Shown piece after piece: positions 3,826-25,731 of a stretch of 32,160 nt of DNA. The notes below the pieces were generated by a model. That model saw only the letters and a program-made list of their open reading frames with translations, was not told where the DNA came from and ran no database searches. Numbering within the stretch: the first letter of the stretch is position 1; the number at the start of each line of letters is the position of its first letter. A program made the position numbers and the translations under genes. Source of the DNA: Candidatus Hadarchaeales archaeon (GTDB lineage: Archaea > Hadarchaeota > Hadarchaeia > Hadarchaeales > JAWBSP01); NCBI GenBank assembly GCA_038842485.1, contig JAWBSP010000013.1, positions 1-32,160 on the forward strand, in the 5' to 3' direction.

Positions 3826-4008
3826 GTGTTACTATAGTAACACACGTTCGGCGGTTCGACATCATGCGGGGCTGGAGTGATGTTACTATAGTAACACCGA
3901 ACGTTGCGGACGCTTGAGCTCATAATTCAATAGCAACTCGCCGCGTGATGCGGTAAGCGGGAAGTGAGCGGTTGGATTTCAGAACGGCATGTGTTACTAT
4001 AGTAACAC
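3826..4008. repeat. Three copies of the 18-bp palindrome GTGTTACTATAGTAACAC
   Basis: Copies at 3826-3843 (perfect), 3880-3897 (G1A) and 3991-4008 (perfect); spacers 36 and 93 bp; between the trpS stop and the ppdK start. Confidence 0.97.
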
Positions 4009-5608: not shown

Positions 5609-5807
5609 CAAAACTGCTTGCTATGAATATGAAGTGTCGTGCCCGTCCCCCGCAATAAGTCGGACGGAAGATAGTAACCCGGAGACCTGATGCGAGTTCA
5701 TTTCTTTGCAGGTGACTTTTCCCGGCTTTCAAGAGGCTCGAATCCCCTCCTAACAGTTGGAAGCCCGCTTATCGGATCTACAAAGTTCACAACCCTACCT
5801 CTGAACC

Positions 5808-5948
5808 TTAGGAGGTTTTCATCTCTTGCGGAGAAACGCGCCTCGGCTTCCCCGTGTGCTCGGGATTCCAGCTCATGATCTCCTCAAGCCTCTTTTTGGC
5901 CCCTCCACCTTTCTCATTACCTCTCTCGTCAATAACCGCGATATATTT
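5808..5948 (-). pseudogene. Possible AbrB/MazE-type antitoxin remnant
   Basis: Startless frame KYIAVIDERG-NEKGGGAKKRLEEIMSWNPEHTGKPRRVSPQEMKTS*; the first 10 residues resemble the AbrB N-terminal motif but the rest of the domain is missing. Confidence 0.3.
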
Positions 5949-6018
5949 TGGGAATTTCCTGATTGCAGCGATAGAGTTGCTCTGGATTTGGTATGTCGTA
6001 GCATCTGGACATAGGGGG

Positions 6019-6093
6019 TGGGGTCGCTGGGATTTGAACCCAAGTCACCGGCTCCCGAAGCCGGCAGGATAGACCAGGCTACCCCACGACCCC
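6019..6093 (-). tRNA. tRNA-Pro(CGG)
   Basis: GGGGTCG acceptor stem, anticodon arm CCGGC-TT-CGG-GA-GCCGG, T-loop GGTTCAAATCC; CCA not encoded; no intron. Confidence 0.97.
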
Positions 6094-6096
6094 ATC

Positions 6097-7254
6097 CTAT
6101 TGTCCACCGCCTTCAATTTGCCTTCCGCTCCGCGATTCCATCAGCTTTTCCAGTTCGGGGATGAGCACCTCCACGGGGGCCTCCTCTATGCTCAGAAGGG
6201 TGAGCAGACCCTGACGCCTCTCCTGCTTGCTCCTGAGGAGACCCATCGCCCTCAGTCTTTCCAGGCACTCGCTGAACCGGTTGTAGCTCAGGGGCTTTTC
6301 CCCGTACTCCTCGCAAACCACCTGATACGTCCCATAAACCTCGGTGGAGGAGGCGTAGGCGGCGCGGGTGGACCGGAGCCTGCGCGCCAGCGCCAGCAGA
6401 GCAGTGGCTTCGTGGGGCCGCAGCTCGGCCAAGACGTGCCTCTTGAGCTCGGGATAGATGGAGGCCTTGGCTTCCCTGACGTGCTCCGGAAGGATTCTGG
6501 GCGCCATCCGCTGCTCCGCCAGACAGCCGGCCCTGTAAAGAACCTCCAAGGCGAACCTGGCGTCGCCCGTCCCGGAGGCCATGTCGGAAATGAGCCTCAG
6601 CACCTCCTCGTCCACTTTCCCGGGCTGAATCGCCTCCCCCGCCCTGAACACGAGGATGTCGAAGAGCTGCTCGCCCGAATAGCGGTCCAGTTCGATCAGG
6701 GTGTGCTGGAAGGTCGAACGGGTGGGAGCGTCAAGCCTGTTGAGGAAACCCCTGTCCCTGCATATTCCTATCAGGCCCAGTCTCCAGGCCGCTGGGTTCT
6801 GCTCCGGGTACCGGGTCAGCAGGTAGAGGAGATCCGGGCCCTCGACCTCCACCTGGTAGTCCAGCTCATCCAGGGTGAGGAGGAGCCTGCCCCCGTGTTT
6901 CTCCAGGTGGCTCACCAGCGTCCCGAGCATCTCCTCGACCGAGTACCCGCGGGAGGGAAAGGCGGGGAGGAGCTTCCTCACGGCCTCCAGCAGAATGAAG
7001 TAGGGAGAACGGGAAATCCTGCAATTCACGTGCACGTAGCTCACCCCCTTCCCCTCCATTTCCCTCCCGAAGAGGCGGGCCAGGGCGGTCTTACCCACCC
7101 CTACGCTCCCCAGCAGGAGGATCCGCTGGATGCACTGCCCCCGCAGGTAGCTCGAAAAGAACTTCCTGAGCTTTTCCAGTTCCTTCTCCCGGTGGGGCAG
7201 CCTGGGTGGCAGGTAGTCGGGGAGGAGCTTGGTGCGGTTCGAGAAAATTCCCAT
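6097..7254 (-). CDS. cdc6: Orc1/Cdc6 replication initiator
   Basis: IFSNRTKLLPDYLP..LPHRE, Walker A GSVGVGKT, HVNC, Walker B LTLDELD, GDAR, C-terminal winged helix. Start set to ATG 7254. Confidence 0.95.
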   Translation of the reverse strand: MGIFSNRTKLLPDYLPPRLPHREKELEKLRKFFSSYLRGQCIQRILLLGSVGVGKTALARLFGREMEGKGVSYVHVNCRISRSPYFILLEAVRKLLPAFPSRGYSVEEMLGTLVSHLEKHGGRLLLTLDELDYQVEVEGPDLLYLLTRYPEQNPAAWRLGLIGICRDRGFLNRLDAPTRSTFQHTLIELDRYSGEQLFDILVFRAGEAIQPGKVDEEVLRLISDMASGTGDARFALEVLYRAGCLAEQRMAPRILPEHVREAKASIYPELKRHVLAELRPHEATALLALARRLRSTRAAYASSTEVYGTYQVVCEEYGEKPLSYNRFSECLERLRAMGLLRSKQERRQGLLTLLSIEEAPVEVLIPELEKLMESRSGRQIEGGGQ

Positions 7255-7297
7255 CAGGTTCTCCGGCTGCGAGTTAAAGCATCCGAGCAAGGGAGAG

Positions 7298-8952: not shown

Positions 8953-9196
8953 GTGTTACTATAGTAACACACCTCCCAGCTTTCGCGGAGGCTTCTACTA
9001 CGAGGACTTCAACTTGCGCCGGGATGGGGAAACGTGTGTTACCATAGTAACACGCGACCGTTGCGCTGTTTCGCCTCGCTCGCGAACGGTTCGGCGACTC
9101 ACGGAGGTGACCTGTGTTACTATAGTAACACACAAAGTAGACGTAAACTCGGTCGACTTTGGAGAGGGGGAGGGGCGTGTGTTACTATAGTAACAC
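8953..9196. repeat. Array of four 18-bp palindromes
   Basis: Copies at 8953-8970, 9036-9053 (T8C), 9114-9131 and 9179-9196; spacers 65, 60 and 47 bp. Confidence 0.97.
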
Positions 9197-9235: not shown

Positions 9236-9727
9236 ATGGGGGTGAAGGTGCTGGTTCTTTACTATTCGAGGGGAGGGAATACCAAAAGCATGGCGGAGGA
9301 GGTGGCGGCTGGAGCCAGGGAAGGTGGGGCCGAGGTGGTGCTCAAGAGCGTGGAGGAGGCGAAGGTGGAGGAAATGGTGGAAGCGGATGGGATCATTATA
9401 GGCAGTCCCTCCTACTTTGGTGGTCCCGCCGCCGAGGTCAAGCGGTTTCTGGACGAGTCGCTGCGGGTGAGGGGCAAGCTGGAGGGAAAGGTGGGTGCCG
9501 CCTTCTGTTCCTCCAGGCACCGCGCGGGTGGAAGGGAGACCACCATGCTTTCCATCCTGCAGTCCATGCTCATCCACGGAATGGTGGTGTGCGGGGATCC
9601 CCTTTCCACGGGCGGGCACTACGGGGCGGCGGCGAACGGTCCCCCGGATGAACAAGCCAAAAGGGAGTGCAGGGGTCTGGGGCGAAGGGTGGCCGAGCTG
9701 GCCGGGAGACTGAAGGTTGGACGTTGA
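9236..9727 (+). CDS. Flavodoxin / WrbA-like NAD(P)H-dependent oxidoreductase
   Basis: YYSRGGNT..MAE, ADGIIIGSPSYFG, GKVGAAF, GGRETT. Confidence 0.9.
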   Translation: MGVKVLVLYYSRGGNTKSMAEEVAAGAREGGAEVVLKSVEEAKVEEMVEADGIIIGSPSYFGGPAAEVKRFLDESLRVRGKLEGKVGAAFCSSRHRAGGRETTMLSILQSMLIHGMVVCGDPLSTGGHYGAAANGPPDEQAKRECRGLGRRVAELAGRLKVGR

Positions 9728-10736
9728 GACCCGCCTCCAGCTGGTGAGGGAGGTCGCCGAGGAAATAGTCACGGAGGAGGAGCTCAGGCACCTGCTCGAG
9801 ACGGAGGAGCATCCCCTCGCCTACGACGGTTTTGAGCCCTCGGGTCTGGCCCACCTCCCCTTCGGGATTTACCGGCCCTTCACCCTGAAGAAGCTCCTCA
9901 GGGCGGGTTTCAGGTTCAAGCTCCTGCTCGCGGACTGGTTCGCCTGGATCAACAACAAGCTTGGGGGGGATCTGGAGCGCATCAGGAGGGCCGGGGAGTA
10001 CTTCGTGGAGGTCTGGAAGGCGGCCGGTGTGCCGATGGATCAGGTGGAGATCCTGTGGTCCTCCGATCTCGTCCGCGACCCCGAGTACTGGAAGCTGGTG
10101 CTCTCCGTTGCCAAGCACCACAACCTGCGCAGAACGCTCAGGGCCTTGGACATCGCGGGGAGGGAGGGGAGCTTGGAAAATCCAACCGCCTGGATTTTCT
10201 ACCCCTGCATGCAGGTGGCCGACATTTTTTACCTGGGGGTACAGGTCTGCCAGCTTGGGATGGACCAGCGGAGGGCAAACATGCTCGCCCGCGAGGTCGC
10301 CCCGAAACTGGGGAGGAGGAAGCCCATCGCCGTGCACCACCACATGCTCATGAGCCTGAGGGGGAAAACGCCCGAGGAGAAGATGAGCAAGAGCAAACCG
10401 GAGACCTGCATCTTCGTGCACGACTCGAGGGAGGAGATTGAGCGGAAACTCAGGAAAGCCTACTGCCCGGAGCGCGACCCCTCGAACCCCGTGGTGGACT
10501 ACGTTAAGCATCTGGTTTTCCCGGCCTTCGGGGAGCTTAGACTCGAGCTCAAATCTGGGGAGGAGGTTTCCTTTGGTAGCTTCGCCGAATTCGAAAAGCA
10601 GTACGTTGCCGGAAAGATACATCCTCTGGATTTGAAGCAGGGGTTGGTGGAGTACTTGGATCGGCTGGTTTCACCCATCAGGGAGCACTTCAAGAGTCCT
10701 CAGGGTATGGCCTACCTTTCCGTTCTAGAAGCCTGA
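9717..10736 (+). CDS. tyrS: Tyrosine--tRNA ligase (archaeal type)
   Basis: YDGFEPSG, ADWFAWIN, YPCMQVADIF, LGMDQR, KMSKS, IHPLDLK. Confidence 0.96.
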   Translation: MDVETRLQLVREVAEEIVTEEELRHLLETEEHPLAYDGFEPSGLAHLPFGIYRPFTLKKLLRAGFRFKLLLADWFAWINNKLGGDLERIRRAGEYFVEVWKAAGVPMDQVEILWSSDLVRDPEYWKLVLSVAKHHNLRRTLRALDIAGREGSLENPTAWIFYPCMQVADIFYLGVQVCQLGMDQRRANMLAREVAPKLGRRKPIAVHHHMLMSLRGKTPEEKMSKSKPETCIFVHDSREEIERKLRKAYCPERDPSNPVVDYVKHLVFPAFGELRLELKSGEEVSFGSFAEFEKQYVAGKIHPLDLKQGLVEYLDRLVSPIREHFKSPQGMAYLSVLEA

Positions 10737-10846
10737 CCCCCCTCTTTCTAGTGGAGAACCCCTGCCCTTCCAGAATTACCCTATGTTACTATAGTAACAC
10801 AAGGAGGCGGTATGGATGATGGAAACTTCCAGTGGAAAGAAGGGGG
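10737..10846. promoter_or_regulatory. Inverted pair of ORB-like boxes with the 18-bp palindrome at the exact centre (candidate origin or initiator-binding site)
   Basis: TTCCAGTGGAAAGAAGGGGG at 10827-10846 (+); CTCCACTAGAAAGAGGGGGG at 10756-10737 (-); palindrome at 10783-10800, 26 bp from each box. Confidence 0.5.
10783..10800. repeat. 18-bp palindrome copy
   Basis: ATGTTACTATAGTAACAC, directly followed by the RBS-like AAGGAGG. Confidence 0.95.
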
Positions 10847-11334
10847 TGTGGGCCAAGATCATCAGTTTCGATCTGGGGGCGACTGGTTCAAAAAAAGTCA
10901 AATTCTATCGCCAGCTGTTTGGGTTTCACAGCACCAGAAGGAGGGGAACCCAGACCCGCAGGGTTTTCACCCCCGGAATTCTCTCCAAAATCCCCCATCT
11001 GGTTTTGGGAAAAAGCGTGGTGGCGGTTCCCCCAGAGGCGTGCTCCCAGCTCTTGGATTTTCTCTCAAACCCCCAGTGGAAACCCATTCAGGTTCATGTG
11101 GTTGATGGCCTGCTTTCCGCGGAGCAGGTCAGGCGCGCCGTGGAGGAATTTTTCAGCCGGCCCGTCAGGCTCACGGGGGGAGAAGTGCCCCTCTCCCAGG
11201 CGGTGCGGGCGGTTTCAAGGAGGGATGCCGGGGACCCCGACCGGAGGTTTGTGGAAAGGCTGCTCGATCAGCTGGGGCGGTTCGAGTGGCTTAAGGAGGC
11301 GGTTCGGCGGGCGAAAGAGGAGCTGAGCAGGTGA
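10816..11334 (+). CDS. Hypothetical protein; N-terminal half resembles a Cas2/PaaX-central ferredoxin-like fold
   Basis: RBS AAGGAGG at 10801; pattern KIISFDL..KKVKFYRQLFG..GIL..LGKSVVAVP..LLDFL. Alternative start GTG 10846. The fold call is by eye only. Confidence 0.7.
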   Translation: MMETSSGKKGVWAKIISFDLGATGSKKVKFYRQLFGFHSTRRRGTQTRRVFTPGILSKIPHLVLGKSVVAVPPEACSQLLDFLSNPQWKPIQVHVVDGLLSAEQVRRAVEEFFSRPVRLTGGEVPLSQAVRAVSRRDAGDPDRRFVERLLDQLGRFEWLKEAVRRAKEELSR

Positions 11335-12179: not shown

Positions 12180-12194
12180 TTTCTCCTCGCTCGC

Positions 12195-12212
12195 GTGTCA
12201 CTATAGTAACAC
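12195..12212. repeat. 18-bp palindrome copy
   Basis: GTGTCACTATAGTAACAC, 15 bp upstream of the radical SAM start. Confidence 0.93.
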
Positions 12213-12320
12213 AGGTTTTCGGTCTGGGAGAAATAATTTGTGCTGGATTAGGGCAGGCAGTTTGTAAGCTTGGTAATCTGAATCCCAAAAATATTTTAAA
12301 TTCTTGGTAATTGAATTCCC

Positions 12321-12517
12321 AACCTCTGGTGGGACAACGAGCGCTGGCAGGAGAAGGATCCAGATTTAAAAAGATGGTCGCGGGCGTGCGGTGGGTCCCA
12401 ACCATACTCGAGAAAATCGAGTTGAAACCTCCCACCGTTCATTTTCTGCTTGGACCCAACGGAGGAGTTCAGCCGGGAGGTTCCATTGTGCCGGTGAGCC
12501 TTTTCCTCACCTGTTTG
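12321..12517 (+). pseudogene. Remnant of an archaeal AAA_14/DUF4143-type ATP-binding protein
   Basis: NLWWDNERWQEKDPDLKRW / frameshift / VRWVPTILEKIELKPPTVHFLLGP, breaking at Walker A, then the C-terminal-like IVPVSLFLTCL. Confidence 0.6.
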
Positions 12518-12565
12518 ACCCCTCAAGATATGAGCTGGAATCTACCCCGCGGCAATTCAGCTGGT

Positions 12566-12885
12566 TTATGCCTTAATCTCGATTCCTTCCTTTAAGGCCT
12601 CCGAGACTAGGGAAACTTTCGTCTTGAGTCTCTGAAACTCCTCCGGGGTATATGGAATGAAATCCACAGGTTTTTGGAGCTTCCATTTAAGCCAGAGTCC
12701 CCTGAGCCTTTCGAAAAAGTTCTTGCCCTCGAAACTTTTACTTATGAGGATCAGGTCAGGTCAATATCACTCCATTCTTTTGAAGTCCCTCTTGGAAGCG
12801 ACCCGAATAAAATCGCTTTTTCTATCCCGGCTTCACGCAGAAAGCTCCTGATCTGCTCCACTACTTCAGGCGCGACACGGCCCAT
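12566..12885 (-). pseudogene. Minimal nucleotidyltransferase (MNT antitoxin), frameshifted
   Basis: MGRVAPEVVEQIRSFLREAGIEKAILFGSLPRGTSKEWSDIDL / 5-bp tandem duplication TCAGGTCAGG at 12751-12760 / ILISKSFEGKNFFERL..PVDFIPYTPEEF..EALKEGIEIKA*. Removing 5 bp restores a 104-aa ORF. Confidence 0.88.
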
Positions 12886-12986
12886 TCCGTCACCTCGGCC
12901 ACTCCCAGTCTTCCCTCTGAAAAATTGAACCTGGCGTCGTCCAAGTCTTTCCTCGCTGCATTCAGCCGAGAATCAATCTCCTCCAT
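12861..12986 (-). pseudogene. HEPN toxin remnant (internally deleted)
   Basis: 41 aa MEEIDSRLNAARKDLDDARFNFSEGRLGVA-EVTEWAVSRLK*: HEPN-like first helix joined to a last helix, overlapping the MNT start. Confidence 0.7.
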
Positions 12987-13146
12987 CGTAGTTTCCGCCC
13001 GCTTTCTAATCTCTTTCCGCCCACATGGAAGGTTTCAAAGCAGGCACATGGCGAGGGAAAGAATTTGCGCGAAAGAGAGCAAAAACCGACAGTTTTCTAA
13101 AGACATGCATGCTGTATCCTCACCAGCTCCCTTCTTGGTGTAAAGT

Positions 13147-18747: not shown

Positions 18748-18835
18748 GTGTTACTTAGTAACATCGGTTTTTGCGGCCGTGTTACTATGGTAACATCGAC
18801 CGGCTTCGGGACGCTAGGTGTTACTATAGTAACAC
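18748..18835. repeat. Three copies of the 18-bp palindrome
   Basis: 18748-18764 (1-bp deletion, C18T), 18779-18796 (A11G, C18T), 18818-18835 (perfect); spacers 14 and 21 bp. Confidence 0.95.
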
Positions 18836-18878
18836 ATTTCTGGTTAGCATGCAACCTCGAATAGAACGTTTCAAAAGC

Positions 18879-18975
18879 TGGATTTCTGCCAAACCTGCTC
18901 GCCCTGACGCTCACCTGCCTGGTTTGGGGGTTCGTGCTTGGTTGCGTGCACGAGCTGACCGAGCCGAAAATTCAG
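18879..18975 (+). pseudogene. Degenerate duplicate of the rnfG 5' end
   Basis: Aligns to about 20793-20891 (shared TGACGCTCACCTGCCTGGTTTGGGG.TTCGTGCTTGGTT.CGTGCAC); ATG changed to ATT and a 2-bp deletion. Confidence 0.9.
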
Positions 18976-19131
18976 CCGTGGAGTTCTCGCTGGGCGAGGG
19001 TTCGGGCTGCTGCGGTGGAAGCGGAGGCCGGGGTTCCGGGCAAAATTGAGAGAGGCTGAGGCCCATCTCAAACGAGGCGGTTTCAGGTCGTGGGGGTCGG
19101 GGCTGTTCACGGGTAAACCTCACACAAGAAG
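18976..19131 (+). pseudogene. Degenerate inverted duplicate of the pyrD 3' end
   Basis: 19058-19090 matches the reverse complement of 13180-13212 at 30/33; similarity continues through the stop codon to CAAGAAG. Confidence 0.85.
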
Positions 19132-19137
19132 TAAAGA

Positions 19138-19329
19138 ATGCCGGTGGTGACCATCGAGCTGTGGGAGGGGAGAACCCCCGAGCAGAAGCGGGAGCTGGTG
19201 AGGGCCGTGTCCTCTGCCATCTCAAGGGTGCTTGGATGCCCAGAGGAGGCCGTCCACGTTATCCTCCACGAGGTACCCAAGGCAAACTGGGGAATCGGCG
19301 GTCGGCTGGCCTCCGAGCTCAGCGCCTGA
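19138..19329 (+). CDS. 4-oxalocrotonate tautomerase family protein
   Basis: Catalytic Pro1: MPVVTIELWEGRTPEQKRELV..NWGIGG. Confidence 0.95.
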   Translation: MPVVTIELWEGRTPEQKRELVRAVSSAISRVLGCPEEAVHVILHEVPKANWGIGGRLASELSA

Positions 19330-20248
19330 GGGAGCTGAGGAACTCAATGAAGTACGACTGGGTCGCGGCGACAACCGCCCCGTAAACCCCGGCCTCCTCA
19401 CCCAGCCTCGAGAGCTCGATGGGGGGAACCGCATTCACGGCGTGGTCCGCCACCCTCTCCCTTATCGGCCTCAGGATTAGCTCCTTGCCGGCCAGCGCTA
19501 GTGCCCCACCCACGATTACCAGCTCTGGATCGTAGGAGTTTATCACGTTAGCGAAGCCAATGGCGTTGAGCCTCCCTATCTCCTCCAGCAGTTGGAGAGC
19601 CTTCTTGTCCCCCTTTCCAGCCCTATCCAGAAGCTCCTCTGACTTCAGCGGGGGATAACCCTTCAGTTTTGCCAAGTTGGGGATGCCCGGTCCCGAACAG
19701 TAGGCCTCCCAGTGCCCGCGCCTCCCGCACCCGCACCTCAGCTTTCCCTCCGGATCTATGGTGTAGTGCCCGATCTCGTGCGCGTTCCCATCCTTCCCGA
19801 ACAGCACCCTTCCGTCCACATAGACCCCTGCCCCTATCCCAGCGCCCAGGTTCACGAAAACCAAATCGTCTATCCCGCTTCCCAGGCCGAATTCGTGCTC
19901 CCCCATGACCGCCGCGACGCAGTCGTTGATGAGATAAACCGGTGAACCCAGCTTCTTCTGCAGGGGTTTCACGATGGGGATGGTCTGCTTGAAGGGCAGG
20001 TGGACGGGATTCACCAGCTCACCCATCCTGTAGTTGAGGGGACCGAAGGAGGCCACGCATGTTCCCTCGAGCTCTTTCGGCTTGACCCCGGCCTTCTTAC
20101 AGAGGGATTCCGAGATGCGGACCAGCTGCCGCGTGAACCCTTCCACGCTTCCGGTCTCGGTTGGCTCCCTAGCTTTGCACACCATTTCCTTCCCGTCAAA
20201 AATCGCGCCCCTGATCTTGGTGGCTCCAATGTCTATCCCAAGGTACAT
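19319..20248 (-). CDS. ROK family sugar kinase (glucokinase-like)
   Basis: GIDIGAT, INDC, GAGIG, HEIGH, CGCGRRGHWEAY. Confidence 0.94.
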   Translation of the reverse strand: MYLGIDIGATKIRGAIFDGKEMVCKAREPTETGSVEGFTRQLVRISESLCKKAGVKPKELEGTCVASFGPLNYRMGELVNPVHLPFKQTIPIVKPLQKKLGSPVYLINDCVAAVMGEHEFGLGSGIDDLVFVNLGAGIGAGVYVDGRVLFGKDGNAHEIGHYTIDPEGKLRCGCGRRGHWEAYCSGPGIPNLAKLKGYPPLKSEELLDRAGKGDKKALQLLEEIGRLNAIGFANVINSYDPELVIVGGALALAGKELILRPIRERVADHAVNAVPPIELSRLGEEAGVYGAVVAATQSYFIEFLSSLRR

Positions 20249-20290
20249 ATAAAAAATTTGAGAGATTGTATGAGTACCTAGCGCATGTGT

Positions 20291-20308
20291 GAGTTACTAT
20301 GGTAACAC
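20291..20308. repeat. 18-bp palindrome copy (2 mismatches)
   Basis: GAGTTACTATGGTAACAC, between the amylase fragment stop and the ROK start. Confidence 0.88.
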
Positions 20309-20314
20309 TGGCCG

Positions 20315-20644
20315 CTACAGTTTGGCATATATTTTTCCTTCCCTCGGCGCCAGAGTAACCTGAATGGTTCTATCCTGACCAACGGTTATTCTTTCCTCGG
20401 TGTTCAGAAGGTTTGTCAACACGGTTCCGGGGGCGAAGCTATCGGGAAGGGTTATGGTCCTGCTCTGCTGCGAGGGGGAGTTGTTGAGCACCACGAGTGT
20501 TTGGTTCTCCCCGTAGACCCTCCTGTAAGCATAGATGGCCGTCTCCCTGTACACCTCAATCTGGCTTCCCCTCCTCAGCTCTATACGATCTTTCCTTATC
20601 TGGCAGAGCTTCTGGATGAGTTTGTAAGTGTCCGTGATCTCCAT
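20315..20644 (-). pseudogene. C-terminal fragment of a GH13 alpha-amylase/CGTase-like gene
   Basis: YKLIQKLCQIRK..LRRG..IYAYRR..LVVLNN..LTNLL..VTLAP: last barrel helix plus C domain; catalytic core absent. Confidence 0.75.
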
Positions 20645-20749
20645 AAGCCCTCCATGGCACCGCTTCTGATTGCCGTGGTCATCGTGGTTGTCGCCGTCAT
20701 CCTGCTCGTGACCTTCAGACGACCAAAACGACGGGGAAAATCCAGATAG
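20645..20749 (+). pseudogene. Orphan C-terminal membrane anchor (or a 31-aa membrane peptide from ATG 20654)
   Basis: KPSMAPLLIAVVIVVVAVILLVTFRRPKRRGKSR*: TM helix plus basic tail typical of surface-protein ends. Confidence 0.5.
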
Positions 20750-20795
20750 CCAACTGGAAGGGCTGAGGGGTTTGAAATAGGAAAGGAAGAATTGG

Positions 20796-21284
20796 ATGTC
20801 AGTCAAGCCCGTGCTCGCCTTGACGCTCACCTGCCTGGTTTGGGGTTTCGTGCTTGGTTACGTGCACCACCTGACCCAACCGAGGATAGAGGAGGCCGAG
20901 CGGAGGGAGATGGCGACGAGGCTCTCGGAAATCTTTCCGGGTTGCGAGTTCGTGGAGGAAAATGGAATCTTTCTCTGCTACCGGGAAAACCAGCTTGTGG
21001 GAAGGGCGCTCGAGGTGAGGGGGAAGGGCTACGGTGGGGAGATGAGGATCTTGGTCGGGATAAACCTGGACAAAACCGTCAGGGGGGTGAGGGTCCTCTC
21101 GCACTCCGAGACCAAGGGGATAGGGTCTAGGGCGGCCGAGCTCCCATACCTCTCCCAGTTCGAGAACCTGTCACTGAACCAGCTAGCCTTCAGGCCCGAG
21201 GGAAAAATAGAGGCGGTGAGCGGTGCCACCGTGAGCTCGAGGGCGATCCTGGAGGCGGTGAGGAGGGCGCTGGAGCATGCCTGA
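20796..21284 (+). CDS. rnfG: Rnf complex subunit G (FMN-binding)
   Basis: N-terminal TM, KGYGG, HSETKGIG, flavinylation motif VSGATVSS. Confidence 0.92.
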   Translation: MSVKPVLALTLTCLVWGFVLGYVHHLTQPRIEEAERREMATRLSEIFPGCEFVEENGIFLCYRENQLVGRALEVRGKGYGGEMRILVGINLDKTVRGVRVLSHSETKGIGSRAAELPYLSQFENLSLNQLAFRPEGKIEAVSGATVSSRAILEAVRRALEHA

Positions 21285-21882
21285 GGAAGGGCGCGACCTC
21301 AGGTGGGAGACCGAGAAGGGGGTCCTGCGCAAGAATCCCGTCTTCGTCCTCCTGCTGGGTCTCTGTCCCTTCCTCGCCATCTCCAAGTCCGTGGAGGACG
21401 CGCTCGGGATGACCCTCGCCTTCTCCTTCGTGCTCCTGTGCTCCACCCTGCTCGTCTCCCTCCTCAAGCGGCAGATACCAAAAAACGTGAGGATCCCCAT
21501 CTTCGTGGTCATCATCTCCAGCTTCGTGACCATAACGGAACTCACCATCAAGGCCTTCTCCCCCACCCTCCGCGAGCACCTTGGAATCTTCCTCCCCCTC
21601 ATCACCGTCAACTGCATCGTGCTGGGAAGGGTCGAGGCCTTCTCCTCCAAGCGTGGCGTGCTCGAAACCCTTGCGGACGCGCTCGGGATGGCGGCGGGCT
21701 TCGGGCTTGCCATCATCTCCATCTCCTTCATCAGGGAGCTACTCGGGGCGGGGGGGATAACCCTCTTCGGGCACACCCTGACCGTTCTCTCCCAGCCCGT
21801 TTCGGCCTTCCTCCTCTCCCCCGGCGGCTTCCTGGTGATGGGGGTGATTTTGGCGGTCCTCAAAAAGTTGGGGGTGATCTAG
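21277..21882 (+). CDS. rnfE: Rnf complex subunit E
   Basis: NPVFVLLLGLCP, VRIP, PLITVNCIVLGR.E. Confidence 0.94.
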   Translation: MPEEGRDLRWETEKGVLRKNPVFVLLLGLCPFLAISKSVEDALGMTLAFSFVLLCSTLLVSLLKRQIPKNVRIPIFVVIISSFVTITELTIKAFSPTLREHLGIFLPLITVNCIVLGRVEAFSSKRGVLETLADALGMAAGFGLAIISISFIRELLGAGGITLFGHTLTVLSQPVSAFLLSPGGFLVMGVILAVLKKLGVI

Positions 21883-22458
21883 GTGGAGGATCTGGTCTCC
21901 ATTTTCCTGGTGACCCTGCTGATCAACAACATCGTGCTGACCCGCTTCATCGGACTCTGCTCCTACTTTGGAATCTCCTCCAACCTGAAGAACTCGGCCA
22001 TGATGGGGATGGCCGTCACCTTTGTGGCGGTGAGCTCCTCGGCCGTTACCTGGTTCGTCAACAGGGGCCTGCTCCAGCCCTTCGGGGTGGAGTACATGAG
22101 GATAGTGGTTTTCATCCTAGTCATAGCCTCCTTCGTCCAGCTGGTGGAGATCCTCATGCGCAAGCTCTCGCCAAAGTTCTACTCCGCCTTCGGGATCTAC
22201 CTCCCCCTCATTACCGTGAACTGCGCCATCCTGGCGGTGAACCTGATCAACTTCGATGAGGGTTACTCCCTCCCCGCCTCCCTCGTGAACGGTTTGGCGA
22301 CGGGGCTGGGCTACACCCTAGCCATCCTCCTCCTCGCGGGAATAAGGGAGAGGTTGGCGTACGAGGACGTCCCGCGCTCCCTTAGGGGTGCCCCCATTGC
22401 CTTCATCGTGGCGGGTCTGCTGGCCCTCTCCTTCCAGGGTTTTGTGGGGATAGGATGA
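21883..22458 (+). CDS. rnfA: Rnf complex subunit A
   Basis: NNIVLTRFIGLC, IASFVQLVE, GIYLPLITVNCAIL, GIRER. Confidence 0.94.
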   Translation: MEDLVSIFLVTLLINNIVLTRFIGLCSYFGISSNLKNSAMMGMAVTFVAVSSSAVTWFVNRGLLQPFGVEYMRIVVFILVIASFVQLVEILMRKLSPKFYSAFGIYLPLITVNCAILAVNLINFDEGYSLPASLVNGLATGLGYTLAILLLAGIRERLAYEDVPRSLRGAPIAFIVAGLLALSFQGFVGIG

Positions 22459-23249
22459 TCGGGGAGCCCCTCACTCTGGCACTGGTGGGGTTTGGGTTCG
22501 CCCTTCTGCTGGTCTGGGCCTCCAAGCGTTTTGCCGTGCAGGTGGATGAGCGGCTGGAGGAGGTGAGGGGGATGCTTCCCGGTGCCAACTGCGGGGCGTG
22601 CGGGTACAAGGGGTGCGAGGACTTCGCCCGGGCACTCGTGGGAGATCCCGCCCTGCTGGGTCAGTGCAGGGTCTTGGCGCCTGCCGAGAGGGCGAGGATA
22701 GCGTCCTACTTGGGGGCGAAGCTCTCGGTCGAATGGGCGGCGGCAGTAGCGGCCTGCTCTGGGGGAAGCAAGGTGGCGTTCGGGTATGCGGGAGAGCGGA
22801 GCTGTCTTGCGGCCTCCCTTCTACAGGGCGGTCCTACTCTCTGCAGGTTTGCCTGTCTTGGGTTCGGGGATTGCGAGAAGGTCTGCCCTTTTGGGGCTAT
22901 ACGGATGGTGAACGGGCTCCCCCAGGTGAATTGGAGGAAATGCACCGGATGCGGTCTCTGCGTGAAGGCCTGTCCGAGGGGGGTCATGGTCCTACTGCCG
23001 AGAAATGCCAAGGTCTACGTCAAGTGTATCTCCCCCGAGCCCGGAAAGCTGGTTGCCACCTCTTGCACCAAAGGGTGTATCAAGTGCAGGCTTTGCGAGC
23101 GCAACTGTCCGAGGGGGGCGATAAAATTCGTGGGGGACAGGATTTCCATCGACTCAACTCTCTGTGACGGGTGCGGGAAGTGCGTGGAGGTCTGCCCGAG
23201 GAAGTGCATCGTGTGGATCCAGCGTCCCGTTCCCCTCCCGGTCAGATGA
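22455..23249 (+). CDS. rnfB: Rnf complex subunit B (polyferredoxin)
   Basis: LPGANCGACGYKGC, CLGFGDC..VCP and further CxxCxxCxxxCP motifs. Confidence 0.94.
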   Translation: MIGEPLTLALVGFGFALLLVWASKRFAVQVDERLEEVRGMLPGANCGACGYKGCEDFARALVGDPALLGQCRVLAPAERARIASYLGAKLSVEWAAAVAACSGGSKVAFGYAGERSCLAASLLQGGPTLCRFACLGFGDCEKVCPFGAIRMVNGLPQVNWRKCTGCGLCVKACPRGVMVLLPRNAKVYVKCISPEPGKLVATSCTKGCIKCRLCERNCPRGAIKFVGDRISIDSTLCDGCGKCVEVCPRKCIVWIQRPVPLPVR

Positions 23250-23470
23250 GGTACGAGGTTGAGGTGAGGTTCGGTAGGGAATTTCTGGAGGTTTGCGGCA
23301 ACAAGATCTCGATTGGGCTCACCTCGAGGCCGGAGGGGGGAAAGGCGAACTTGGAGCTGGTCAAGAAGCTCGCCAAGCACTTCGGCGTCCCCTCCACTCA
23401 AGTCAGAATCGTTTCAGGCTTCACCTCTAGGAAGAAAGTGGTTGAAATCGTTGCATGTTCAACAAAATAA
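23246..23470 (+). CDS. DUF167 (UPF0235/YggU) protein
   Basis: PEGGKANLELVKKLAKHFGV..IVSGFTSRKK; ATGA overlap with the rnfB stop. Confidence 0.92.
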   Translation: MRYEVEVRFGREFLEVCGNKISIGLTSRPEGGKANLELVKKLAKHFGVPSTQVRIVSGFTSRKKVVEIVACSTK

Positions 23471-23482
23471 GTGAGAACTCGA

Positions 23483-23500
23483 GTGTTACTATAGTAACAT
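23483..23500. repeat. 18-bp palindrome copy
   Basis: GTGTTACTATAGTAACAT, between convergent genes. Confidence 0.95.
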
Positions 23501-23568
23501 CATTTCTGGGGATTGTGCACGGATTCACCGGGTTTCTGAGAAACTTCCCTTGGTCTCACCCGAATAAA

Positions 23569-23652
23569 GTTCCGTTATAGTGGTAATCTTGCTTAGAAAC
23601 TTTACCGCTATAGTGGTAAAATATACAGTTGGCTTCTCCACTATAGTGGCAA
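23569..23652. repeat. Three copies of a second palindrome (consensus TTACCACTATAGTGGTAA) at a 33-bp period
   Basis: 23569-23586 GTTCCGTTATAGTGGTAA, 23602-23619 TTACCGCTATAGTGGTAA, 23635-23652 TCTCCACTATAGTGGCAA; unrelated 15-bp spacers. Confidence 0.85.
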
Positions 23653-25731
23653 TCACACAACCAGAAGCCCCCAATTTTCAGTTTGTAGAAGGTTCCCGCT
23701 AGAGTCGACGAACAGACCGAATGCCCCAAGACGCTCGAGCAGAAGCCTCCCGTTTTCGGGTCCCAGCACGAAGGAGGCGGTGCTGAGGGCATCCGCGTCC
23801 ATCCCCCGGCTCGCCACCACCGTCACGCTCTGGCACTGGGTGGCGGGCTCCCCCGTTCTCGGGTCGATGATGTGGTGAATCCTTCTGGCCCCGAGGAAGT
23901 AAACCCTGACGTAATCGCCAGAGGTCGAGACCGCGCCCTCGCTCAGCTCGATGGTCTGGAGGATCTCCTCGGGCTTCCTGGGGTGCTGGATCCCTATCCT
24001 CCAGGGTTTGCCGAAGACCCTGATTTCGCCACCTATCTGGACCATTCCAGCCTCCACCCTCGAGCGGAGGATCTCGCAGGCAAGGTCGGCTGCGTAACCC
24101 TTCGCAATCCCGCCCAGCGTCACCTGCATCCCCTCTTTTAAGAATCTCGCCCTCCCGTTCTCCAAGACTAGGGCCCTCCAATCCACGAGTTCCCGTGCCC
24201 CTTGAAGTTCGGAGGTCGAGGGAAGCCTGCCCCTCTCCTTTACCTTCTTCATCCAGAGGTCGACCAGAGGCTTCACGGTGGGGTCGAAGGCGCCGTCCGA
24301 GAGTTCGGCGTAGCGCAGTGCCTCTTGGAGCACCTGGTAGGTTTTGGGCGAGAGCTCCACCCATTCGGTCCCGGAATGGTTTAGCTTCCAGATTTCTGTT
24401 CCCTCCTTCTCGCAGGAGAGCAGGTCCTCCAGCTCGTGTACCTCCCGCAGCGCCAGCTGGACGGCCTCTCTTGCCTTCTCCAAGTTTTCATCGCACGCAG
24501 TGATGCGCACGAAGGTGTCCATGGCGAGATCCTCGGCCCTTACGTAATCCCGGCCGAACTCGAAGCGCGGGAGGGAAAGGTGGGAGACGAGCACAGGAAG
24601 CAGAACCAAGAGACAGGCGGCCCCGACGGCGGCTCTCCTGCGTTCCCTTCCGAGCCTTGGGATGAGGATGAGGAGGATGGTGAGGAGGCACTGGGTGAGG
24701 AGGAAGCTTGCCGCGAGCCCGGTCAGCCCGAACCTTCGCCCGAGCGCCACGACCGAGAGAAGCTGGAGGGGGACGGTGATGGCGTAGGCCGAGGAAGTAC
24801 TGGCGGGGCTTTGTTCGGAGAGGAGTTCGGCGGAGCAGACTTGGGAGAGGGTGGCGGGAACCAGTGCGAGGAGCATCAGCTGGAAGGCGCGGAGCGAGCC
24901 CGAGTAGTCAGGGAAAAGACGGGGGAGGAGGAGGGAGAAGCCAAGCCCGCCCGCGAGAAGGAGGAGGGAGGATTTCAGGGCGAGCGAGCGCATGCCCTTG
25001 GACTGGGTGGAGAGGGAGTAGAAGAAAAGGGTCTGGGGGAGGGCAGCGAACAGGTAGAGGAGACGGGAGGAGAAGTAGTAGAGGCCTAGGATCTCCATTC
25101 CAAGCAGGTGCCCGGCCACAACCTTGTCCAGGAAGCCCAGGGAGGCCGAACCGAGATCGGTGAGGAGGTAGCCGGCAAGTTTTGGTGTTACTATGGCAAC
25201 ACGCGCGTTTTGCTTCGGTGCTGATGTTACTATAGTAACACTCGGGCGGGACAGAACTGCCAGCGAGGGGAGAAAGTGGGCGAGGAAAAGGCCGAGGAAG
25301 ATTGCCCAAGTTTGTTGGAGCAACAGATAGAGGAGAAGGGGGAGGATGAGGAGAGCGGAGCGAGCGATCCAGAGCCTGAGGTACCCCGAGAAGTTCTTCC
25401 GCGCAAGCTGAAGGTGGAAGGAGAGGGAGAAGAGGGAAAATCCGAGGACGAGCAGACCGGCTCCAGGGTGAAGGAGGGTGAGGGGAAGACCCAGAGCGGT
25501 CGAGGAAATCAGCGTCAGGTACAGGGAACGCTCGGGATCCGGGAACTTGGAAACGATGAGCGACTTCCCTAGGCCGAGGGAGGCAATCGTCGAGAGGAGC
25601 ATGGAGATTGAAAAGAAATAGCCAACTTCCCCGAAGGCAAAGGGGTGCAGGAGGAGAGCCAGAACAAGCCAGAAGAGGCTTCCCGAGAGAGTAGCCATCG
25701 CTTGGGCCAGTGCAATGATTTTCATCTTCAT
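23653..25731 (-). CDS. apbE: Fusion of a MOP/Wzx-like multi-TM transporter (N) and an ApbE FAD:protein FMN transferase (C)
   Basis: N-half polytopic (FGEVGYF..SLGLG, LDKVVAGHLLGMEILGLYYFS); C-half AMDT, SDGAFDPTV.PL..LW, LGGIAKGYA, GGEI, STSGDY, HHIIDPRTG, ADALSTA. Confidence 0.9.
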   Translation of the reverse strand: MKMKIIALAQAMATLSGSLFWLVLALLLHPFAFGEVGYFFSISMLLSTIASLGLGKSLIVSKFPDPERSLYLTLISSTALGLPLTLLHPGAGLLVLGFSLFSLSFHLQLARKNFSGYLRLWIARSALLILPLLLYLLLQQTWAIFLGLFLAHFLPSLAVLSRPSVTIVTSAPKQNARVAIVTPKLAGYLLTDLGSASLGFLDKVVAGHLLGMEILGLYYFSSRLLYLFAALPQTLFFYSLSTQSKGMRSLALKSSLLLLAGGLGFSLLLPRLFPDYSGSLRAFQLMLLALVPATLSQVCSAELLSEQSPASTSSAYAITVPLQLLSVVALGRRFGLTGLAASFLLTQCLLTILLILIPRLGRERRRAAVGAACLLVLLPVLVSHLSLPRFEFGRDYVRAEDLAMDTFVRITACDENLEKAREAVQLALREVHELEDLLSCEKEGTEIWKLNHSGTEWVELSPKTYQVLQEALRYAELSDGAFDPTVKPLVDLWMKKVKERGRLPSTSELQGARELVDWRALVLENGRARFLKEGMQVTLGGIAKGYAADLACEILRSRVEAGMVQIGGEIRVFGKPWRIGIQHPRKPEEILQTIELSEGAVSTSGDYVRVYFLGARRIHHIIDPRTGEPATQCQSVTVVASRGMDADALSTASFVLGPENGRLLLERLGAFGLFVDSSGNLLQTENWGLLVV
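25185..25241. repeat. Two 18-bp palindromes inside the coding sequence
   Basis: 25185-25202 GTGTTACTATGGCAACAC and 25224-25241 ATGTTACTATAGTAACAC; read in frame as SVTIVTS and RVAIVTP. Confidence 0.93.

Follow-up and report, generated by a model that had tools for sequence, protein, structure and literature searches.

Archaeal replication origins have been dissected in a few cultured models only, and a literature search, judged by title, found no paper on a Hadarchaeal replication origin. Here, we examine a 112-base candidate origin (positions 10736-10847) in a 32,160-nucleotide stretch of Hadarchaeal DNA, referred to as the window, in the light of published archaeal origins. The window is the whole of contig C13 of an archaeal assembly of 943 kb in 27 contigs (G000; 88.9% complete).

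At oriC1 of Sulfolobus/Saccharolobus, two origin recognition boxes (ORBs), ORB3 and ORB2, stand inverted around a DNA-unwinding element (DUE) that contains the ucm motif, and the origin is bound by Orc1-1 and UBP. The ucm motif lies midway between the boxes and is required for origin activity; UBP, a protein of 111 amino acids with more than 300 genomic sites, binds both ucm and the N terminus of MCM (PMC12141716). Consensus sequences for archaeal ORBs and for those of Methanomassiliicoccales have been compiled together with inverted ORB pairs whose gaps measure 39-256 nucleotides (PMC4153887, Table 2). In Pyrococcus, the dp1 gene contains a cluster of ORBs to which Cdc6 binds, and a lone 13-nucleotide mini-ORB is insufficient for binding in vivo (PMC1904270).

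An inverted pair of ORBs around a palindrome

The element consists, in this order, of the stop codon of tyrS, a left box, 27 bp, a 16-bp palindrome, 27 bp and a right box (Table 1). The boxes are inverted, 21 bp long each, and share with the palindrome a dyad axis at 10791.5. Boxes and axis are as the original prediction for this DNA had described them, and the box coordinates used there (10827-10846 and 10737-10756) give 16 of 20 matches. A repeat search delimited the arms as 10736-10755 and 10828-10847, that is, 20 nucleotides with 85% complementarity and 72 nucleotides between them. The palindrome had been proposed to span 18 bp (10783-10800); it is its own reverse complement, without a mismatch, over the inner 16 bp, but the outermost bases, A and C, are not complementary. 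The right box does overlap the start of the next open reading frame (ORF), where it covers codons 4-11, although the frame begins at 10816 and not at 10812. Besides the palindrome, the 70 bp between the boxes contain a Shine-Dalgarno-like GGAGG (10803-10807) and the start codon of that gene, which codes for a protein of 172 amino acids.

Both boxes have the published short ORB form, a TTCCAGTGGAAA core followed by 3-4 bases and then (A/G)GGGGT, and the match to the archaeal and Methanomassiliicoccales consensus covers sequence as well as length, the terminal GGGGT included (PMC4153887, Table 2). For an ORB matrix, 22 boxes were taken by coordinates from the relatives' loci, and the 20 boxes from genomes other than G000 were used. 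Over the whole 943-kb assembly, this relatives-only matrix ranked the right box first (32.2 bits) and the left box second (23.4 bits), the next match reaching 15.8 bits. Infernal model R1, a sequence-only model from alignment A2, gave per-genome E-values of 1.6e-4 for the right box and 0.0062 for the left. The earlier identification of the boxes as ORBs gains strong comparative support from the consensus match, from their two top ranks in the genome and from the occurrence of one inverted pair per genome across the order, as described below.

A third ORB-like core had also been proposed, at 11073. A 13-nucleotide core is present at this place, with 14.0 of 22.3 bits, but it fails as a full ORB (-6.6 bits). 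We therefore rejected it as a third ORB; it is a mini-ORB at best, situated over an invariant Trp codon. In the same-genus relative G001, four matches resembling the 13-nucleotide core fall within 520 bp (G001:C3:118711-119235), far from the ORB pair and close to a minor local dip in the cumulative skew.

Compared with the published systems, the element is alike to Sulfolobus oriC1 in that inverted ORBs, by analogy with one initiator each and in fixed polarity, would flank a loading zone, and in that a short motif with many further genomic copies lies midway between them, although the relative G011 has two copies. It is unlike oriC1 in that the motif is palindromic over 16 bp without a mismatch, as would suit a dimer, whereas ucm has 11 bp and is bound by a UBP monomer. 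Moreover, the inner zone here has 70 bp and no strong AT bias, a cdc6 gene does not adjoin it, one of the ORBs is part of a coding sequence, and the factor at the centre is putative, whereas UBP is known. The predicted origins of Methanomassiliicoccales (PMC4153887) share inverted pairs of 22-nucleotide short-type ORBs (core, 3-4 nucleotides, AGGGGT), gaps down to 39 nucleotides and two cdc6 copies per genome; in contrast, their pairs stand directly beside orc1/cdc6.1, and the accessible part of that source describes no central palindrome or linked gene. In Pyrococcus (PMC1904270), an inverted ORB pair likewise defines the origin and Cdc6-bound ORBs lie inside a coding gene, but the ORBs are long (34 bp), there are many mini-ORBs and two AT-rich regions, and cdc6 adjoins the origin. 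Because Pyrococcus Cdc6 binds ORBs within a gene, the earlier reservation about a right box inside a coding gene loses force.

We consider it probable, judging from sequence comparison, that the element is a compact chromosomal origin of the oriC1 type, with a factor-binding palindrome at its centre that is tied to the neighbouring gene. Most likely, it represents an ordinary kind of archaeal origin in an unusually compact form. The whole origin would fit into 112 bp, from a stop codon to codon 11 of the next gene, which would make in vitro loading assays and structural work practical.

The pair is conserved across the order. In the same-genus relatives G002 and G001, both boxes and the palindrome persist despite diverged spacers, and tyrS is again the neighbour. 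The left box is non-coding and still kept in both, while the adjacent protein there is 58-59% identical. The inner distance between the boxes is 70, 70 and 76 bp in G000 and these two relatives; its length is kept and the spacer sequence is not. R1 matched in 51 of the 61 genomes of the order, and 29 of the 61 have an inverted pair, once per genome and on one contig. The minus-strand box has the lower coordinate in 29/29 pairs, so that the G-strings point outward in all of them; this orientation, raised earlier as a caveat, is real but, being the rule in this lineage, loses its force as an objection. Measured from start to start, the boxes are 91-98 bp apart in 9 genomes; in another 8 the spacing is 137-236 bp, and in the remaining 12 it is 362-417 bp. 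What is conserved in the relatives is both boxes, a check that had been suggested earlier, but not the exact symmetry: only the distance from the palindrome to the right box persists.

The inner 70 bp have a GC content of 45.7% compared to 58.8% for the contig, which places them in the lowest 7% of 70-bp windows. By nearest-neighbour sums, no 21-mers within the surrounding 400 bp are less stable than those of the stretch 10773-10802 (-21.8 kcal/mol per 21 bp); with a contig mean of -29.9 kcal/mol per 21 bp (standard deviation, 2.6), this stretch is in the 0.16% least stable windows. The modules of the relatives have a lower GC content than the surrounding locus in 7 of 8 cases (34-44% versus 37-52%). 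The module of G013 is not AT-rich (58% versus 60% GC in its locus).

From these features we infer Orc1/Cdc6 binding, helicase loading, unwinding and the identity of the central factor as follows. One Orc1/Cdc6 monomer would bind each inverted box with fixed polarity, and the two bound initiators would steer MCM loading onto the 70 bp between the boxes. Opening would begin at the centre, where the duplex of the region is least stable. The 16-bp palindrome would be the docking site of a sequence-specific, probably dimeric factor, functionally tied to the 172-amino-acid gene either because the palindrome is the operator of the gene or because it is the site of the gene's product. In this genus, the sites of the factor would have multiplied around the origin.

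An inverted repeat at this position might instead act as RNA. The boxes would then form a 20-bp stem in a tyrS read-through transcript that encloses a palindrome hairpin, the ribosome-binding site and the start codon, and that controls translation of the 172-amino-acid gene. The fold of 10730-10855 reaches -51.5 kcal/mol (z = -3.65; 0 of 200 shuffles as good), but this energy is not discriminating, as any inverted repeat folds well. Furthermore, the arms are kept to the pan-archaeal ORB consensus in primary sequence and not in complementarity alone, mismatches between them occur without compensation, they stand anywhere from 91 to 417 bp apart, and in 14 genomes they enclose a whole gene. We consider control by such a stem very improbable.

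GC skew, cdc6 and the position of the origin

A cdc6 gene lies 3.5 kb from the element, and the gap to the gene next to it is 44 bp, in agreement with the short upstream gap noted earlier (43 bp). A second cdc6 copy is found on contig C6. In all 8 genomes checked (G000, G011, G018, G001, G008, G029, G003 and G013), cdc6 is 3.5-40 kb from the pair, the distance in the relatives being 8-40 kb.

GC skew had been suggested as a check on the origin, and it gave a divided answer. The base-wise cumulative G-C curve of G011:C1 (1,030,738 bp) has its minimum at 790,950, which is 45 bp off the pair (790,995/791,086), and the pair is the top ORB-matrix match of that contig. The left-right switch metric, with arms of 25 and 100 kb, peaks there at 791,000; arms of 50 kb place the peak at 784,500. 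The 250-kb contig G008:C2 has its switch peak at 86,000, close to the pair at 87,868; the cumulative minimum is far from the pair, at 243,825. Taken over the contigs of the relatives, the pair is no more than 40 kb from a skew switch in 4 of 4 and pinpoints it (within 2 kb) in 2. The switch thus falls at the pair in G011 and G008, but off it in G003 and at cdc6 in G001 and the window contig.

The last three cases open the list of results that weigh against an origin at the pair. On G003:C2 (440 kb), with the pair at 326,352 and the skew minimum at 365,941, the switch is 13-39 kb away (339,500-350,500 with 100- and 50-kb arms); with 25-kb arms, it is at 109,000. On G001:C3 (150 kb, same genus), both the minimum (47,274) and the switch (45-48.7 kb) are at cdc6 (48.6 kb); there is no switch at the pair (32.4 kb), which is 15-16 kb from it. 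On the window contig, which is too short for a skew test, the switch with 5-kb arms peaks at 6,400, beside cdc6, and the skew is negative from about 12 kb. An initiator gene is directly adjacent to the pair in 0 of the 8 genomes checked. A GC scan of the element region in G000 detected no long AT-rich DUE, only a mild dip, just as the original prediction had cautioned. With regard to the boxes, the left one is the weaker ORB match, shuffled genomes give about 1 match at 16 bits or more with the ORB matrix, and the right box owes its conservation in part to the protein that it encodes. The relatives are kin and not independent samples, so that the co-occurrence and conservation counts reported here overstate independence. 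Finally, at 89% completeness, the assembly could lack a further ORB cluster.

Several of these points would fit a pair that binds Orc1/Cdc6 but is inactive here, as a regulatory or relic module such as a control element of the adjacent gene or a dormant origin, with replication starting elsewhere near cdc6. The skew of G001:C3, G003 and the window contig and the lack of a long DUE in G000 speak for it, as does the fact that the boxes overlap the promoter and initial codons of a conserved gene; transcriptional regulation by Orc1 paralogues has been described (PMC9738581). However, matrix and core scans revealed no ORB or 13-nucleotide core near either cdc6 gene of G000 (C13 and C6) or near cdc6 in G001, and the gap at the G000 gene is just the 44 bp mentioned above; a canonical origin beside cdc6 was rejected on this ground. 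The skew switch coincides with the pair in G011 and G008, the contigs of the genus are short and at that scale local gene orientation dominates the skew, and on G001:C3 the palindromes surround the pair, 10 of 10, and not cdc6. We regard an inactive pair as rather unlikely. Our reading of the locus as an origin region is well supported by these comparisons, and initiation exactly at the pair in this genus is what we propose. If so, the pair would be a usable origin marker for genome finishing and for growth-rate (peak-to-trough) estimates in an uncultured lineage.

The central palindrome and the 172-amino-acid protein

The palindrome is not unique to the origin centre, a fact of which the original prediction was unaware. 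It belongs to a multicopy family. G000 contains 30 copies with exact half-sites, and 47 matches at up to 1 mismatch per half-site compared to 6-17 in shuffles. Crude ORFs leave only 9% of the genome uncovered, yet 19 of the 30 exact copies fall there. Among the relatives, exact copies number 21 in G001, 15 in G009, 2 in G002 and 2 in G018, and G011 has none. All 10 exact copies on G001:C3 are located at 20.6-38.4 kb. In G011, 1.03 Mb contain two copies of a variant palindrome, one in the middle of the origin and one immediately 3' of the stop codon of the 172-amino-acid-family gene; a loose pattern gave 19 matches in that genome versus 19-40 in shuffles and thus no excess.

Some copies form arrays outside the window. 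Seven lie 52-64 bp apart at G000:C18:11709-12067 (locus L139, 3710-4068), where roughly 1 kb without coding sequence separates a prephenate dehydratase gene from a gene for a 678-amino-acid protein without a Pfam family, and an extra copy is found at the start of the latter gene (G000:C18:14153). At G000:C18:3481-3727, 250 bp contain four copies of a variant whose half-sites are swapped, TGTAAC-ACGT-GTTACA, and a further one is at G000:C23:6909. A role of the palindrome as a core promoter or TATA box was rejected, as copies are 24.5 to >250 bp from start codons and occur in arrays.

Palindromic sites concentrated around the origin are also a feature of bacterial parS/ParB centromeres and of the SegB sites of Sulfolobales. 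The 16-bp palindrome resembles both in having copies near the origin (12 of the 30 exact copies are on the window contig, which makes up 3.4% of the assembly; 10 of 21 are within 18 kb of the pair in G001). It is unlike parS/ParB in that G011 has two copies and in that no ParB_N domain was matched at E <= 0.01 in the 89%-complete G000 assembly. A parS/ParB centromere was set aside on this negative result for the incomplete assembly.

The palindrome keeps its position relative to the right box and is linked to the adjacent gene. The two boxes of G000 are each 27 bp away from it, and at 13 of 17 gene loci, which belong to three families, a copy lies 26-33 bp inside the right box. Thirty ORB loci from as many genomes were compared: with a 172-amino-acid-family gene next to the origin, 14 of 15 loci contain the palindrome, and where a LAGLIDADG-like ORF separates the boxes it is present in none of 14. 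In G012, the family gene has moved to another contig; the origin keeps a palindrome copy, and the moved gene has a copy 12 bp upstream. The LAGLIDADG type is found in 14 genomes, where the ORB pair (362-417 bp) encloses an ORF of about 120 amino acids with a LAGLIDADG-like N-terminal motif and the right ORB lies in its last codons (loci L076-L079, L081, L084-L088, L090, L091, L096 and L098; e.g., L088 1551-1919). The strict alternation between this ORF and the palindrome with its gene, together with the parallel to ucm and UBP, suggests that archaeal origins in general may have a third factor at their centre, a place taken by unrelated proteins.

These data also bear on the possibility that the palindrome is a selfish or structural repeat resembling repetitive extragenic palindromic (REP) sequences, or a hairpin at 3' ends, that stands by chance in this intergenic gap, like copies in many other gaps, and has no role in initiation. 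REPs bracket their transposase, and copies of the palindrome bracket the 172-amino-acid gene in many relatives; several copies are a few bases 3' of stop codons, some arrays have 3-7 copies, and the number of exact copies and their share outside ORFs in G000 point the same way. On the other hand, the kept distance to the right box, the confinement of both G011 copies to the origin locus and the copy retained at the G012 origin although the gene moved away all argue against it, as does a protein family with a single invariant His and no conserved HUH motif. We judge a palindrome of this kind, with no part in initiation, to be quite unlikely.

As to its function, the palindrome may be a docking site at the origin centre comparable to that of ucm and UBP, which we put forward tentatively. 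That it serves as an operator of the adjacent gene only appears doubtful, that it is a REP-like element or an RNA hairpin is improbable, and some role other than these is less probable still. The idea of an origin with a palindrome-binding factor at its centre, as originally conceived, is partly supported: its first part gains strong comparative support from sequence, while the factor itself is something we infer.

A search of 41 genomes found homologues of the 172-amino-acid protein in 20, and the eight proteins closely related to it are without exception annotated as hypothetical. Searches of Pfam, NCBIfam and PDB sequences with it gave no match. Its structure model (pLDDT 90, pTM 0.78) has a ferredoxin-like domain at about residues 10-113, followed by C-terminal helices, and the invariant residues of alignment A1 include D19 (at the end of strand 1), H61, K66 and W88. 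Foldseek against PDB returned nothing at E <= 1e-3, Cas2 being best by probability. VIA-align gave Z values of up to 7.3, typical of a generic ferredoxin-like fold, and the fold matches were only generic ferredoxin-like proteins, Cas2 and CutA. Atlas matches were ChrB_N/PaaX_M-like models at TM 0.5-0.58, and a BFVD fold search found nothing. UBP was not among the fold-search matches, and no search with the UBP sequence was made. No HUH motif was found in alignment A1, whose single invariant His has been mentioned; a transposase of the REP/RAYT (REPtron) type, characterised by HUH and Tyr, was rejected given the lack of this motif and of a Pfam family and the generic fold. A distant homologue of the ferredoxin-like domain appears to be fused behind a nucleotidyltransferase-like N terminus at L020 (G031:C44; 1432-1755 and upstream), and Atlas also contains NTP_transf_2 fusions.

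The fold searches revealed no recognisable DNA-binding domain in the protein, a further point against the proposed origin with its gene-linked central factor. Because of this, binding of the palindrome by the 172-amino-acid protein is a suggestion from linkage only. A more far-reaching model, which we consider unlikely, would have two lineage-specific occupants of the origin centre in this order, namely the LAGLIDADG-derived gene or the palindrome with the Cas2-like-fold protein. This protein or a partner would bind the palindrome as a dimer between the boxes occupied by Orc1 and participate in loading or releasing the helicase, and its sites would have spread to dozens of origin-proximal gaps. 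If true, this would be a new origin-associated DNA-binding system, UBP- or ParB-like in its working and unrelated to either.

Features of the window

The coordinates of the element, of the genes next to it and of the further palindrome copies are listed in Table 1.

Table 1. Positions of the candidate origin and associated features in the window
Feature	Coordinates	Strand	Remarks
Left ORB box	10736-10756	-	G-string left/outward; starts on last base of tyrS stop codon
Right ORB box	10827-10847	+	G-string right/outward; inside codons 4-11 of 172-amino-acid gene
Inner 70 bp between boxes	10757-10826		Presumed helicase-loading and unwinding zone
Perfect 16-bp palindrome, TGTTAC-TATA-GTAACA	10784-10799		Exact centre; member of genome-wide family
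Mini-DUE, least stable duplex stretch of region	10773-10802		Palindrome and left flank; nearest-neighbour sums
Mini-ORB-like 13-nucleotide core without G-string	11071-11083	+	Overlies codons of invariant Trp88 (PQWKP)
Conserved 172-amino-acid gene, no known family	10816-11334	+	N-terminal ferredoxin-like (Cas2-like) domain and C-terminal helices
Tyrosine-tRNA ligase gene (tyrS)	9717-10736	+	NF006330, E = 1.1e-105; stop codon (10734-10736) abuts left box
Orc1/Cdc6 gene	6097-7290	-	Probable ATG 7254; Cdc6_lid, Cdc6_C and AAA domains; TIGR02928, 255 bits
Three palindrome copies	3827-4007		At 3827, 3881 and 3992; between PPDK start and trpS stop
Four palindrome copies	8954-9195		At 8954, 9037, 9115 and 9180; 288-bp gap upstream of flavodoxin-like gene
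Palindrome copy, one half-site mismatch	12196-12211		Just upstream of radical-SAM gene converging on 172-amino-acid gene
Six palindrome copies	18780-25240		At 18780, 18819, 20292, 23484, 25186 and 25225

Three other regions of the window stood out. Downstream of cdc6, about 400 bp (5612-6015) between a tRNA-splicing endonuclease gene and tRNA-Pro (6016-6094) are apparently non-coding; an Rfam search of this stretch was without a match, the tRNA-Pro being the only hit nearby. The top strand of 24500-25700 is strongly purine-rich (GC skew 0.32, AT skew 0.32) over the N-terminal, Pfam-less half of an ApbE-containing ORF of 692 amino acids. Two palindrome copies (25186 and 25225) are inside this ORF, which is possibly over-extended. 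Lastly, about 950 bp at 12180-13146 are without a Pfam-matching ORF and contain the lowest-GC stretch of the contig (22% at 12263-12330), where decayed genes are possible.

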